From: an uncultured virus (IMG/VR IMGVR_UViG_3300044732_003010) | Taxonomy: Duplodnaviria; Heunggongvirae; Uroviricota; Caudoviricetes | Virus record (IMG/VR): IMGVR_UViG_3300044732_003010 | Coordinates: 1 to 64,000 of that record | DNA length: 64,000 nucleotides | Direction: 5' to 3' (one strand) | Part shown: positions 30,956 to 63,070 of the stretch, one piece after another | Layout: every line of letters starts with the position of its first letter | Position numbering within the stretch: position 1 is the stretch's first letter | The notes under the pieces: model-generated | What the model was told of the DNA's origin: nothing | Seen by the model: only the letters and a program-made list of their open reading frames with translations | Database searches by the model: none | Position numbers and translations under genes: made by a program

Positions 30956-31139
30956 ATTCACGCTAGAAGATTACATCTATGTTCCCATTGAACCAGAAAT
31001 GGCAAGAAAGCTACTCAAACATCACGGAAAAGACTGGGAACCCTTTGACGAATTTAACGGTTTTTATCATTGTCTAAAACAAACATTGGAAGACTTTGAT
31101 AATAGATTTGAGCCTCAAAAAGAAGAGTCTGAATTTTAA
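30945..31139 (+). CDS. Hypothetical protein
   Basis: GGAGG RBS, 64 aa. Confidence 0.55.
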   Translation: MEDKFTLEDYIYVPIEPEMARKLLKHHGKDWEPFDEFNGFYHCLKQTLEDFDNRFEPQKEESEF

Positions 31140-31152
31140 CTTAGGAGTAATC

Positions 31153-31356
31153 ATGTCTCAACCTATCGAACTTTCTTTAGAACAGCAGTTCAATATTCGT
31201 TCTTTTCAGATTCAGGTAGAACAAATGAGCCAAGAGCAAGCGCAGGATTTCCTGATCAAGCTTTACGAACAAATGATGGTCAGAGAAAATATGTACAAAG
31301 CTTTTCTTAAACATCAATGGGGATTAAGTGATAATCCGTGGCAAAAAACAAAGTAA
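31153..31356 (+). CDS. nblA: Phycobilisome degradation protein NblA
   Basis: MSQPIELSLEQQFNIRSFQIQVEQMSQEQAQDFLIKLYEQMMVRENMYK; AGGAG RBS before ATG 31153. Confidence 0.95.
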   Translation: MSQPIELSLEQQFNIRSFQIQVEQMSQEQAQDFLIKLYEQMMVRENMYKAFLKHQWGLSDNPWQKTK

Positions 31357-44834: not shown

Positions 44835-44907
44835 TGTGGGGTCTAGGAGTCGAACCTAGTGTTTTAGGCTTATGAGGCCTATGTGGAAACCATTTCACTC
44901 ACCCCGC
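44835..44907 (-). tRNA. tRNA with CAT anticodon (Met or Ile2)
   Basis: GCGGGGT/ACCCCAC acceptor (one mismatch), TAGGC-CTCATAA-GCCTA anticodon arm, CTAGG-TTCGACT-CCTAG T arm; TTGACA promoter upstream; CCA not encoded. Confidence 0.85.
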
Positions 44908-53542: not shown

Positions 53543-53564
53543 GTGACAGTTTATCAAGTGTCAC
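53543..53564 (-). repeat. 22-bp site, inverted copy 1
   Basis: GTGACAGTTTATCAAGTGTCAC is the exact reverse complement of 55613-55634. Confidence 0.85.
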
Positions 53565-54250: not shown

Positions 54251-54586
54251 TTATTTAAACCAGACAAACTTGTGATGGCAGTCCTGGCAATAAAATTGCC
54301 TATTTCCTGCTTTAGTATCGGGTAATTGGTGAAGATTGTGGCTGTGGCACCTGGGACAATGCTCTTCCTCTGGGGGGAGCAATTCTCCCAATTCCAGGCA
54401 CCGATAAACTTTATAAACGGCGCGGCGGACGTGTTCTTGTTGCACGCCTAACTTTTCGGCTAATTTTTTACTAGCTTTGTACCGATAAAACTTGTGCTTT
54501 TCGGTAAGGGGCAAAGGAAGAATTCCGTAGAAATCAGCCCATGCCCGATAAATGTTAGCTTGTCTTGGTGTGATCGGCATAATCAA
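54251..54586 (-). CDS. HTH + zinc-ribbon protein
   Basis: ITPRQA...LAEKLGV..EHVR (sigma region 4-like); CPRC...FYCQDC. Confidence 0.65.
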   Translation of the reverse strand: MIMPITPRQANIYRAWADFYGILPLPLTEKHKFYRYKASKKLAEKLGVQQEHVRRAVYKVYRCLELGELLPPEEEHCPRCHSHNLHQLPDTKAGNRQFYCQDCHHKFVWFK

Positions 54587-54917
54587 AACTGTAATACTTC
54601 CAATAATCCTCTCTCAATTGCTGAAAGTCAATCAAGCCTATTTTTAAATAAGATTTATTGGGATTAAACTGCTGAGGTATTGTATATTTTCCTCGTTTTT
54701 CTTGCGCCCAATTTATCAAATCGTTATTACTCGGCATAGTATCTGTCTGTCCAGCATCAATCCATTTAAGTCTTGCAATCTTTTCAAAAATTTTGCAATA
54801 CCGAGCCGCTTCATGAGAATCGTGAAGATACCCCATTTTGCTGTTTTCGTTCCAGTTTTCTTCAATTTCTTTAAGAAGAAGTTCGGATTCTTTAATTTTT
54901 TGCGAAATAGTAGTCAT
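54555..54917 (-). CDS. Hypothetical protein (candidate target of the antisense RNA)
   Basis: 120-aa ORF with a G8 RBS. Confidence 0.65.
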   Translation of the reverse strand: MTTISQKIKESELLLKEIEENWNENSKMGYLHDSHEAARYCKIFEKIARLKWIDAGQTDTMPSNNDLINWAQEKRGKYTIPQQFNPNKSYLKIGLIDFQQLREDYWKYYSFDYADHTKTS

Positions 54918-54942
54918 AATTTCCCCCCCCTACTTAAGCTTC

Positions 54943-55034
54943 GGGGTATCCCTAATAGGGATTATTAGATAAAGCGCACGCAACTACGACTATAGTTCAT
55001 AGTTTCAATTCCTAATAGGAGTTCTTTGTGCAAC
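54943..55034 (-). CRISPR. Degenerate type I-D-like repeat-spacer-repeat unit (mini-array/crRNA-like RNA), no cas genes
   Basis: Minus strand: GTTGCACAAAGAACTCCTATTAGGAATTGAAAC, short spacer, then ...TAATAATCCCTATTAGGGAT; matches the cyanobacterial CCCTATTAGGGATTGAAAC repeat end. Confidence 0.65.
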
Positions 55035-55086
55035 TACCTTAAGTAAATCACCTAATTCGTAAAAATAGGTGTTTTGCTGTGCCACT

Positions 55087-55548
55087 TTAGGCACTGGCAC
55101 GCTGAGAAAATCGGTAACATACCTCTTGATAGGAAATACACTGAATCTCTCCCTTAATATTTTCAAATACCCAATAATCGCCATCGCTATCTCGATAAAT
55201 AGCATTTAAATCAATAGGAATCTCAAAAGTTGCTGACACCTCTCCTTTTTTACCTTCAAATTTTCGGCTTACAGGTTCCATAAATTGCTTTTTGTAGCCA
55301 CCATATTTAATATCTTTTTCGCTAGATATTTTAGCGATCCACGCTTTCCAAGCTCGTTTGGGAGTTTCGAGGGTAAGAGTGCGAGTTTTAGGCAATCTTT
55401 TAAAGCTTACGATAGTATTTTTTTGAAGCTGTTCAATTGCGGCTTCTACTGCTAAGATTTTAATCACTAATTTGGCTTTATTACGATTGCCATGAGTCGC
55501 TCGTAATTGAGCATTTAACTTGTTTAATTTTGTTTTTAGGGTATTCAT
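55087..55548 (-). CDS. Early hypothetical protein with an N-terminus shared with 57861..58427
   Basis: MNTLKTKL..L..QL..T.GNR.KAK.VI.IL.VE.AIE.L. Confidence 0.7.
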   Translation of the reverse strand: MNTLKTKLNKLNAQLRATHGNRNKAKLVIKILAVEAAIEQLQKNTIVSFKRLPKTRTLTLETPKRAWKAWIAKISSEKDIKYGGYKKQFMEPVSRKFEGKKGEVSATFEIPIDLNAIYRDSDGDYWVFENIKGEIQCISYQEVCYRFSQRASA

Positions 55549-55612
55549 GTTTATTTCCTATTTATCCATACTTTAATCTAATCACCTATTCCCATATCGT
55601 GGGAGTTAGATT

Positions 55613-55634
55613 GTGACACTTGATAAACTGTCAC
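55613..55634 (+). repeat. 22-bp site, inverted copy 2
   Basis: GTGACACTTGATAAACTGTCAC. Confidence 0.85.
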
Positions 55635-55677
55635 ACTTTGCCAACTATCTGAAAATTATCATGATATATTTAAAATA

Positions 55678-55953
55678 TAAGCACTAAACCGAGTGCATCC
55701 ATTAATTAGAGCCTCCATAAGCTACTGGGCGGATCAGTAACCGATTTGAAATAGTAGTCGGCTGGTGAGACTGGTTAATGAAGTGCATCCATTAATTAGA
55801 GCCTCCATAAGCTACTGGGCGGATCAGTAACCGACTTGAAATAGTAGTCGGCTGGTGAGACTGGTTAATGAGTCGTTCTAAGCTTGCTGGTGTAAACCCA
55901 GTAACCGATTTGAAATAGTAGTCGGCTGACGCACGCACTTGGTTTAGTGCTTA
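55678..55953 (+). ncRNA. Candidate structured RNA with a 19-bp closing stem and three repeated two-hairpin modules
   Basis: TAAGCACTAAACCGAGTGC...GCACTTGGTTTAGTGCTTA; 90-bp tandem duplication plus a third partial module; TGnTATATT -10 just upstream. Confidence 0.65.
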
Positions 55954-56258
55954 TTACTTTAAATAGATTCTTAGTTACTCTAGCGATTTACTGTCACTGG
56001 ATTTGGGCAAAAGTGATAACACCTAGACAAGCCTACATCTATCTAGTGTGGGCAAAAAACAACAATCTTGACCCAGTGCCTGTTACTTCCCGGCATCGGA
56101 ACTATCGCTTTAGAGTGGCATCAACTACAGCAGAATTAGGAATAGGTAAAGAACGAGTTAGGCAAGTTTTGGCTAAAGTCCTTGAACTGCTATCAAAAGG
56201 AAACCAAATTGAGGAGGCAACCGACCTAATACTACAAGAGTACAAAAAATTTAATTAA
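55947..56258 (+). CDS. HTH protein, paralogue of the 54251..54586 N-domain
   Basis: ITPRQAYIY..WA...TAELGIGKERVRQ; start may be GTG 56013. Confidence 0.6.
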   Translation: MLITLNRFLVTLAIYCHWIWAKVITPRQAYIYLVWAKNNNLDPVPVTSRHRNYRFRVASTTAELGIGKERVRQVLAKVLELLSKGNQIEEATDLILQEYKKFN

Positions 56259-56260
56259 TC

Positions 56261-56289
56261 AAAACCCGTCAATCAATTGACGGGTTTTT
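56261..56289 (+). terminator. Intrinsic terminator
   Basis: AAAACCCGTCAAT-CA-ATTGACGGGTTTTT. Confidence 0.75.
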
Positions 56290-56530
56290 AGTTAGTATTG
56301 TTAACAATCTGTTAGCAGTGTATTAACAGTGAAAAGTATTGATATATATACGTTTTATTAGTTTGTTGTTTTTGTTAGCAGGTTCCCTAATTTTCGTTTT
56401 TTTTGTGTCCAGATTCCCTAATATAGAAAATTCTATATTAGGGAATAATTGATTATTTAATGTAGTACAATATTAATATGCCCTCGTTGACGCGAGGGAC
56501 TAACTAAGTCAACCTACTGTAGAGGCTAAC

Positions 56531-57235
56531 ATGGCTGATCTAATTTTACAACGTTTTGATCACGACGGCATCGAGCTAATTATCGACACTCAGACCGGTG
56601 AAAGCTTTGCCTCAATCAAAGGATATGCTCGTATGTCAGGGAAAAGCCACAACGCTATCACTATGCGATTAAACCGGCTACCTAAAGAAGATAGCAAGGG
56701 GGTAACTTCTGAATCTCCAAATCACCCTCAAATTCAAACAGGGAGCGGGTTACAAGGGGGTAACACAATGGGGTTAGGATTAGGATTGCTAAAACAGGCT
56801 CAAATTCAAACAGAGGGCGGGTTGCAAGGGGTTTATCTAATCCCAGAAGACCTAATCTGTAAGTGGTTGCCAAAGGATAATCCTGAGTTAGCCTCTCAAG
56901 TGCTTAAGCTAGGAGTCCGATTATTCCTTCACACATTAGCTGGTTTTCGCGTCAAGAGCGAGGCAATTACAGAGGTAAGGCAACTTGAGAGCCAAATCGT
57001 CAAACTAAGCGAAGAGAAGCAAATACTAGAGGAGTTGATCAAAACTCAAAAGACTATGATCGCTGACTTTAGCAGTAAAAACTCGATGCTTGACTATAAG
57101 CGGCTAGTGATCGAAGAATTACACGCTGAAAAAGAGCGCGATATAGCTAAATTTAACCTACTCGAAACCGAACGAGAAAAAGCACGGGGATGGCGAGGCG
57201 GTCGAATGCTCATGAGAAACGATAAAAAACAGTAA
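56531..57235 (+). CDS. Antirepressor/KilA-N-like protein with coiled coil
   Basis: LQRFDHDGIELIIDTQTGESFASIKGYARMSG; internal duplication of QIQT..GLQG. Confidence 0.55.
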   Translation: MADLILQRFDHDGIELIIDTQTGESFASIKGYARMSGKSHNAITMRLNRLPKEDSKGVTSESPNHPQIQTGSGLQGGNTMGLGLGLLKQAQIQTEGGLQGVYLIPEDLICKWLPKDNPELASQVLKLGVRLFLHTLAGFRVKSEAITEVRQLESQIVKLSEEKQILEELIKTQKTMIADFSSKNSMLDYKRLVIEELHAEKERDIAKFNLLETEREKARGWRGGRMLMRNDKKQ

Positions 57236-62377: not shown

Positions 62378-62436
62378 CATACAAACATATACCTGTCATT
62401 ATAGGTATATACCAAAAAACCAAAGGAGTTCACGAT
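62367..62436 (+). repeat. 70-bp promoter+RBS cassette type 2, copy 2
   Basis: Identical to 61293-61362. Confidence 0.9.
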
Positions 62437-63070
62437 GACCGAAAAACTACCCAATCAAGTCGCATTAGAAATGGTGAACTTACCAGCAGGTGAGTTTCTC
62501 ATAGGCTCTCCTGATAGTGATCCCGATGTTCAAAATCATCAAAAGCCTTCACACCAAGTTAAAGTCAACAGTTTTGCGATTGGCAAATATCCGGTGACTC
62601 AGGAACAATATCAAGCAGTAATGGGAACCAATCCCTCTCACTTTAAAAATAATCCCCAAAATCCGGTAGAACAGGTTAGTTGGGACGATGCTAGAGCTTT
62701 TTGTCAGAAATTGAGTCGAATAACCGGTAAAACCTATCGCCTACCCACAGAAGCGGAATGGGAATATGCTTGTCGAGCAGGTACAACTACTACATATTAT
62801 TTTGGTGATGATGCTAATCAGTTAAGAGATTATGCTTGGTATAGCGAAAATTCTAATGACACAACTCATCCCGTAGGACAGAAAAAGCCCAATGGTTGGG
62901 GACTGTATGACATGAGTGGTAATGTTTGGGAGTGGTGCGAAGATAGTTGTCTGCGCGGCGGTTCTTGGTTCATCAATCCGAGGTACTGTCGCAGTGCGGT
63001 TCGTTTCTGGCTCTTCCCCGGCTTCCGCTTCAACTTCAGCCTCGGTTTTCGAGTTGTCTGCGACAATTAG
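62435..63070 (+). CDS. FGE-sulfatase (C-type lectin fold) domain protein with a DGR-type variable C-terminus
   Basis: PAGEF.IGS, YPVTQ, RLPTEAEWEYACRAG, DMSGNVWEW, LRGGSW...GFRV. Confidence 0.9.
   Translation: MTEKLPNQVALEMVNLPAGEFLIGSPDSDPDVQNHQKPSHQVKVNSFAIGKYPVTQEQYQAVMGTNPSHFKNNPQNPVEQVSWDDARAFCQKLSRITGKTYRLPTEAEWEYACRAGTTTTYYFGDDANQLRDYAWYSENSNDTTHPVGQKKPNGWGLYDMSGNVWEWCEDSCLRGGSWFINPRYCRSAVRFWLFPGFRFNFSLGFRVVCDN

Follow-up and report, generated by a model that had tools for sequence, protein, structure and literature searches.

The locus examined here raises the question of whether a long inverted repeat around several two-hairpin modules, in the genome of an uncultured virus, is a genuine RNA gene and, if so, what such an RNA might do. 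The window, i.e., the whole stretch of DNA that was analysed, corresponds to the first 64 kb of an 88,081-bp IMG/VR virus record which CheckV rates as complete. Taken together, the results presented below indicate that the element is very probably a real, transcribed and structured RNA gene. It belongs to a known kind, the phage small-RNA gene with its own promoter, and to a family that is uncatalogued. What is new is the anatomy of the modules, the copy-number polymorphism with its duplication allele, the strand test, the counts of presence and absence, and the data from RNA libraries.

The phage and its host group

The phage encodes a large terminase, a ribonucleotide reductase, a helicase, a primase, several DNA methyltransferases and tail genes, as well as two ParB-like proteins. 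The product of the gene at 31096-31356 is NblA, the phycobilisome-degradation protein (PF04485; E value 6e-25), and a tblastn search with this protein against 50,697 phage records gave matches only in Microcystis phages, with 37% identity. Because it carries nblA, the phage is predicted to be an uncultured cyanophage. Its terminase has at most 44% identity to that of any phage among the same 50,697 records.

Family identity

The original prediction did not recognise the family, and the database searches agree with it. Rfam 15, used with permissive filters on positions 54500-57000 of the window, gave no match on the element at E values up to 10, and the two-module copies of three relatives (L003, L016 and L021) gave none at E values up to 5. 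A mir-3 match overlapping the 5' edge of the element scored 18 bits against a gathering score of 54 and was dismissed as chance. ARAGORN identified no tRNA or tmRNA at the element; the sole tRNA gene that it detected in the window is a tRNA-Met (CAT) at 44835-44907. Six strings representing the sequence motifs of the family were sought in 8.4 million papers and preprints and were not found, and of 83 papers on the wider topic the 12 that were listed include no title or abstract on this RNA.

Anatomy of the element in the window

The features of the window copy and of its surroundings are collected in Table 1. A long closing stem with one G-U pair had been predicted, and the two arms of this stem, P1, are indeed 20 nt in length and 95% complementary, with one G.T as the sole exception. 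Between them, at 55692-55934, lie three modules. The two tandem 90-nt units are present as described, with a single difference (CCGATT in one, CCGACT in the other) and with AGTCGG pairing with both. The third module does have the altered first hairpin, TTGCTGG/CCAGTAA, so that TGCTGG/CCAGTA stands where the other modules have TACTGG/TCAGTA and pairing is preserved. This change had been offered as a sign of selection; it is present, but it compares paralogues inside one RNA. The repeated hairpin with a constant loop, AACCGAYTTGAAATAGTAGTCGG, was likewise recovered, with three matches in the window and none in any of 100 shuffles of the window.

Table 1. Coordinates of the element and of neighbouring features in the window.
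Feature	Position	Strand	Remarks
Palindrome-like site GTGACA-N10-TGTCAC, left copy	53543..53564	.	22 bp; exact inverted copy of 55613-55634
Operator-like palindrome GTGACA-N10-TGTCAC	55613..55634	.	Directly upstream of the -35-like TTGCCA
Promoter-like region	55638..55670	+	TTGCCA at 55638-55643; TGATATATT (TG-n-TATATT) at 55662-55670; nearly invariant in relatives
Closing stem P1, 5' arm	55677..55696	+	Inverted repeat and consensus structure
Two tandem 90-nt units	55692..55871 (55692-55781, 55782-55871)	+	One difference; duplication adding the third stalk
Stalk A, copy 1	55700..55780	+	10-bp stem, irregular helix and three-way junction; hairpin 1 at 55723-55739, hairpin 2 at 55741-55761 with loop TGAAATAGT
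Stalk A, copy 2 (duplicate)	55790..55870	+	Hairpin 2 at 55831-55851
Stalk B, paralogous module	55872..55934	+	6-bp stem; hairpin 1; hairpin 2 at 55905-55925, loop as in stalk A
Closing stem P1, 3' arm, then U-rich tail	55935..55954	+	Terminator-like in the consensus scan
Fourth look-alike of the loop motif, single-stranded, in the 3' tail	55956..55966	+	ACTTTAAATAG, compared with ACTTGAAATAG
Weakened hairpin (CTAGCGA...TCACTGG)	55980..56000	+	Perfect 12-bp stem plus CTGCTTT in many relatives
First downstream gene, 81 aa, GTG start	56013..56258	+	No promoter module of its own in this phage

The fold energy of the + strand between 55670 and 55960 corresponds to a z score of -4.6, and none of 200 shuffles was as low. 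For positions 55678-55956, a three-stalk fold modelled on the consensus gives -83.9 kcal/mol, as compared with an unconstrained minimum of -97.1, in which other pairing is formed inside stalk A and between the duplicates. Column 68 of the alignment is a C in 12 of the 20 sequences, which suits hairpin 2 (a C-G pair) and misfits the alternative pairing with A, and for this reason the Y-stalk structure predicted by comparison is preferred over the minimum-energy fold of the single sequence. The inner five bases of the P1 5' arm recur in the duplicated unit, and P1 could thus close around either three stalks or two.

Relatives and the number of modules

An exact-pattern scan of IMG/VR revealed 24 further contigs, i.e., 25 copies in all with the window, and a degenerate hairpin pattern with free stem letters returned the same 24 viral contigs and no diverged members. 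The arrangement in three modules, correctly described for the window, does not hold as the norm of the family. The two-module form, which is 186-189 nt long, has its hairpin-2 units 74 nt apart and lacks the 90-nt duplication, accounts for 21 of the 25 copies. The duplication is present in the window, L005, L009 and L013, the last of which is cut by the contig end, and its junction is identical in these four; the three-module allele is thus predicted to be a derived state that arose once. It is found in two upstream contexts, next to a methyltransferase gene in L005 and to a divergent small gene in the others. The duplicates have since diverged, as the difference between the two copies in L005 sits at another position than in the window. 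A metagenome contig, L078, also has three units.

In the JGI metagenomes, a two-loop pattern located 29 loci, seven of which belong to the family (some are also in IMG/VR); the remainder were rejected as coding repeats, simple repeats and one CRISPR array (L094). Among 185,579 species genomes there were 20 pattern matches, 10 of them from Bacteroidota or Balneolaceae. All were set aside as chance or coding matches, since the arms were non-complementary in every case. A blastn search with positions 55560-56060 against the 50,697 phage records gave no match. Within the reach of these scans (IMG/VR, the JGI metagenomes and the 185,579 species genomes) the family therefore appears narrow and confined to phages, and the element is single-copy in each genome.

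Consensus structure, covariation and strand

The alignment used for structure prediction (A1) consists of 20 two-module copies over 189 columns, with a mean column identity of 98% and only 12 distinct rows. RNAalifold predicts a P1 of 17 pairs, within which stalk A has a 10-bp stem followed by an irregular helix and a three-way junction with hairpins 1 and 2, and stalk B has hairpins 1 and 2 after a 6-bp stem. Stalk-to-stalk alignment identifies the two as paralogous, with a common core of TAAGCT, hairpin 1, CAGTAAC, hairpin 2 and GCTG.

Selection on RNA structure had been proposed on the strength of pairing-preserving changes, and the comparison of the 20 two-module homologues bears this out. 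Standard pairs are kept in 98.6% of 780 pair cells, counted on the same alignment that yielded the structure, and when the partners are slid by 1-3 columns pairing falls to 23-42%. Covariation is present: four pairs are changed on both sides, a count reached by none of 500 shuffles. Three of these changes are in hairpin 2 of stalk B of L021 (CUAUCU/AGAUAG for CCGAUU/AGUCGG) and one is in P1; there are in addition 18 extra pair types, nearly all of them G.U/A-U/G-C switches. All of the both-sided covariation comes from the two most divergent sequences, L021 and L016, and the statistical power is therefore low to modest.

The + strand is clearly favoured as the putative RNA strand. The consensus folds with -61.2 kcal/mol on the + strand as compared with -49.9 on the -, and for the mirrored structure the score is -51.8, as compared with -60.0. 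Of the 780 cells, 102 are G.U, so that the structure read on the - strand would pair in only 86.2% as against 98.6% on the +. The promoter-like sequence points in the same direction. Such asymmetry would not be expected of a palindrome acting purely at the level of DNA.

The 9-nt loop of hairpin 2 (motif UGAAAUAGU) is identical in 39 of the 40 copies contained in the 20 sequences, and in L021 the hairpin arms co-vary while this loop is unchanged. The hairpin-1 loops vary, being GCGGA (kept in 14 of 20) or GCAGA or GTAGA (6 of 20) in stalk A and TGTAATT, TGTAAGT or TGTAAGC in stalk B. Near-constancy of the one loop alongside variation of the other points to sequence-specific recognition of a loop that would be displayed by the RNA. 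The only open frame of note, 16 codons within stalk B, is without its ATG in L021 and varies freely in its residues, and the element is accordingly non-coding.

The cassette and its genomic setting

The promoter claimed for the element is partly substantiated. An extended -10 of the form TG-n-TATATT ends 7 nt before the stem and would direct a start near position 55677; the consensus scan, in contrast, paired TTGCCA with hexamers other than TATATT, and for this reason we infer the start site from its position only. The module formed by the operator-like palindrome and the promoter also heads neighbouring promoters in relatives. At the distal end of the cassette, a hairpin that is weakened in the window and in six others occurs in many relatives as a perfect 12-bp stem followed by CTGCTTT, and it is therefore likely to be the terminator of the cassette. 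The 81-aa gene of the window and of eight relatives begins 13-60 nt past this hairpin, with no promoter module between; in L005 and L014 the perfect hairpin and CTGCTTT directly precede the same gene. A second complete promoter module follows the hairpin in 11 other loci, and the downstream genes at those loci would therefore be independent of read-through.

Over the 153 pairs formed by 18 two-module loci, the mean identity of the element is 96% (minimum 87%), while the 300-nt flanks are unrelated in 74 of the 153 pairs upstream and in 34 of 153 downstream. Flanks that are homologous match the element in their degree of conservation (98% versus 97%), and thus the element is not singled out by conservation alone. 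Orthologous loci were defined by the downstream 234-aa gene and at least 1.6 kb of upstream sequence. The element is present at 18 of the 23 loci that qualify and missing from five (L108, L111, L115, L119 and L127). In three of the latter (L111, L115 and L127) the palindrome was found upstream, and a single promoter module directly drives the next gene. In three related near-complete records the element was found nowhere in the sequence. From this distribution the cassette is judged to be a stand-alone and optional unit, resembling a 'moron'.

Several features of the surrounding region may be mentioned. The two 22-bp inverted repeats listed in Table 1 flank a 2,048-bp block of five small genes on the minus strand, and in relatives the 153-aa gene of this block is found on one or the other side of the RNA, upstream on the - strand or downstream on the + strand. 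Given this variable place and strand, the palindrome/promoter modules look like swap or inversion points between phages. The proteins encoded at 54251-54586 (-) and 56013-56258 (+) are paralogous, small and helix-turn-helix-like, share the motif ITPRQA and are about 44% identical; they are transcribed divergently on either side of the RNA, in a layout which resembles a genetic switch. Between the 81-aa and the 234-aa genes, a perfect 15-bp hairpin with a T-rich run (56413-56446) constitutes a strong terminator-like site.

Occurrence in RNA libraries

Transcription had been part of the original prediction, and pieces of the element do occur in contigs from RNA libraries. Fifteen metatranscriptome runs from lakes or freshwater, belonging to eight studies, hold 5-16% of the sampled words of positions 55000-56600, a stretch of which the element makes up 17%. 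Four runs from four studies were examined as Logan contigs, a format from which strand, ends and level are not readable. Pieces of the element were found in three of them, with depths of 3-21 in X1, 10-34 in X4 and 3 in X5, and in two of these runs the contigs on the element, with depths of 17-55, were deeper than the adjacent pieces (2-6). Run X1 has a further piece from 56497 onwards at a depth of 43. No contig of run X2 falls on the element, and some flanking portions are left uncovered by every run; no weight is placed on these gaps. With DNA carry-over being possible in RNA libraries, these pieces lend weak to moderate support to expression.

A proposed function and its alternatives

We tentatively propose that the RNA is a multivalent decoy for an RNA-binding protein, a reading that we hold to be possible and to fall short of an even chance. 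Of the readings considered, it is the one that best fits the combination of identical loops on repeated stalks, a variable and persisting number of modules, an optional cassette, and a depth in RNA libraries above that of the neighbours. The protein sponge, antisense RNA and processed multimer suggested in the original prediction are likewise guesses. The RNA would be transcribed rightwards from its own operator-linked promoter and would measure approximately 190 nt in most relatives and 280 nt here, both lengths being derived from predicted ends. Its long closing stem would hold two paralogous Y-shaped stalks, or three in this phage by way of the 90-nt internal duplication, each with a terminal three-way junction from which a variable hairpin and the hairpin with the 9-nt loop would extend. 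Accumulating during infection, the RNA would present two or three identical loops and the related single-stranded motif of the tail; these may bind an RNA-binding protein, whether encoded by the cyanobacterial host or by the phage itself, resulting in its titration, with the number of modules setting the dose. Both the partner and the effect are what we infer from this arrangement. The neighbouring genes encode no RNA-binding domain, and among 11 genes present only in cassette-bearing genomes (four genomes with the cassette compared with two without) none is RNA-related, in a comparison too small to carry much power.

RNAs of the CsrB/RsmZ class titrate proteins through repeated hairpin-loop motifs in one abundant RNA. 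Like the element, they have several copies of a short motif in hairpin loops, in a number that varies between genomes. The analogy is a working one, since the repeated GGA loop motif of that class is not conserved here, where the only GGA-bearing loop is the GCGGA of hairpin 1; the element differs also in being phage-encoded and in the sequence of its near-constant loop. The design is unusual in having paralogous Y-shaped stalks under one closing stem, a constant displayed loop and a natural polymorphism of two versus three modules. Its carriers are uncultured cyanophages of lakes, which form a group, and freshwater RNA libraries from eight studies hold pieces of it. If a host protein is titrated, the element would offer a handle on the takeover of bloom-forming cyanobacteria or on the evasion of their defences, and the natural alleles (no module, two or three) would provide a ready-made dose series. 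A bolder version, in which each Y-shaped module would mimic an RNA bound by a cyanobacterial defence protein and the element would be the first RNA-based counter-defence of a cyanophage, seems to us improbable. Candidate targets would then include a CRISPR repeat-binding protein, a type III toxin and an anticodon nuclease. Were it true, potency would be tuned by the number of modules and the three-module allele would be a recent step in an arms race.

Of the other functions considered, a trans-acting base-pairing RNA, in which the 9-nt loops serve as repeated seeds that kiss host or phage mRNAs and alter their translation or stability, is unlikely in our estimation. Many phage and cyanobacterial small RNAs do act by base-pairing, and near-constant loops on stable stems, the combination of a stand-alone promoter with a hairpin cassette, and the pieces in RNA libraries would all suit such a role. 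Against it, the complement of the loop occurs only once in the 88-kb phage genome (at 29942, in the middle of an ORF), where approximately 0.3 per strand is estimated by chance, its 12-nt complement is absent from that genome, and several identical seeds within a closed multi-stalk fold would be unusual for RNAs of this type. A leader-encoded immunity RNA of the P4 CI or P1 C4 type was rejected on similar grounds (12-nt complement absent, 9-nt complement once and 26 kb away) and for want of a match to C4 in Rfam. It is improbable, too, that the element acts in cis as the leader of the operon of small genes transcribed rightwards, with its fold controlling read-through into the helix-turn-helix gene by antitermination or attenuation. 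The 81-aa gene without a promoter module of its own in the window and eight relatives, the placement of the perfect hairpin directly before it in L005 and L014, and the weakening of this hairpin in the window and six others are what such a leader would predict. In HK022 put, which mediates processive antitermination, two adjacent stem-loops follow closely on an early promoter and precede a terminator. Two-hairpin modules just past an early-type promoter partly resemble this architecture; the element is unlike put in having two or three modules within a closing stem, in being an optional cassette and in being followed often by a second promoter. That second promoter module, present in 11 loci, counts against a leader, as do the cassette-less relatives, which use one promoter module for the same genes, and the fact that the gene behind the cassette differs from phage to phage.

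In a narrower form of the decoy reading, with a named target, the RNA would imitate a CRISPR repeat of the host in the manner of a Racr, or some other RNA involved in defence (a type III antitoxin, for instance), and soak up Cas6, an effector or a toxin; we regard this as very unlikely. Cyanobacteria are rich in CRISPR arrays, and the host predicted from nblA is a cyanobacterium. The metagenome contig L094 (5,090 bp) holds an array of 28 identical 37-nt repeats, which we take to be of a cyanobacterial type, with spacers of 36-40 nt and a degenerate last repeat that sets the direction, and 14 nt of the repeat match the loop and 3' arm of hairpin 2 in the same orientation. This match, however, was selected by a 12-nt search pattern, beyond which anchor the similarity is not significant (270 of 5000 shuffles do as well), and none of 27 spacers of the array matches the phage or its relatives. 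A phage pseudo-antitoxin is known to gain potency by expansion of its repeats, and type III antitoxin repeats are tandem, 34-45 nt in length and located beside a ToxN-type toxin gene. The modules measure 74-90 nt, in excess of these and of the 28-37 nt of CRISPR repeats, and no toxin family was detected among the 99 phage ORFs scanned against Pfam. In PMC10651486, Racrs are described as small intergenic non-coding phage RNAs directly past a strong promoter that act as dose-dependent decoys of RNA-binding defence proteins, a description which speaks for the mimic. According to the same paper, the SRUFinder rule calls for a CRISPR-repeat match over at least 90% of the length and a blastn-short bit score of at least 41.1, whereas the present match covers 38% of the repeat (14/37 nt); Racrs are there solitary units matching the repeat over at least 90%, and the element consists of 74-90-nt units inside a larger fold. 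Five older contig ids and the motif were sought in nine supplement files of that paper and were not found. Nor is there much to recommend a DNA-level element whose palindromes bind a dimeric protein (as a ParB partition site, an origin or a recombination hot spot), with transcription being incidental, which is likewise highly improbable. The two ParB-like proteins, the likeness of tandem units that each have an inverted repeat to plasmid centromeres, and the surrounding promoter modules as swap points between phages would be in keeping with it. The G.U cells, which pair on the + strand only, represent an asymmetry foreign to a DNA palindrome; moreover, in L021 the arms co-vary around a fixed loop, optional presence is unfit for an origin or packaging site, and pieces of the element are enriched in RNA-library contigs. 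Finally, a MITE, or a gene-less cassette of the IS200/IS605 type with a guide RNA for the TnpB-like protein of this phage (567 aa), is largely refuted and can be given hardly any credence. The 20-nt terminal inverted repeats and the presence of that protein would suggest it, but the single copy per genome and the lack of a true copy among the 20 matches in species genomes show that the element is not a MITE; in addition, the inverted repeat varies at its outer ends (L016, L020, L021 and L025), TnpB and the RNA occur independently of each other, a TnpB orthologue (97.5%) being present in G006, which is without the RNA, and absent from G001, which has it, and the RNA is 26 kb from tnpB. A retron msr-msd RNA was also discarded, as no reverse-transcriptase family was detected among the ORFs scanned.

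Other features of the phage genome

The TnpB-like protein is encoded at 81613-83316 of the phage's own genome (L104:1414-3117) and comprises OrfB_IS605 and a Cas12f1-like TNB domain. Orthologues or paralogues of it are present in all six of the related near-complete records examined. As context for such an element in a cyanophage, a preprint (10.64898/2026.02.14.705889) deals with invertible segments and tnpB in Anabaena phages. The gene at 62435-63070 encodes a 211-aa protein with an FGE-sulfatase (formylglycine-generating enzyme-like) domain (E value 7e-48), the PHROGs family label of which is 'kinase'. A single open frame of 4,398 aa at 66637-79833 of the phage's own genome (L103:2738-15934) includes tape-measure, lysozyme or endopeptidase-like, and beta-lactamase-family domains, and has an unusual length for a tape-measure protein.
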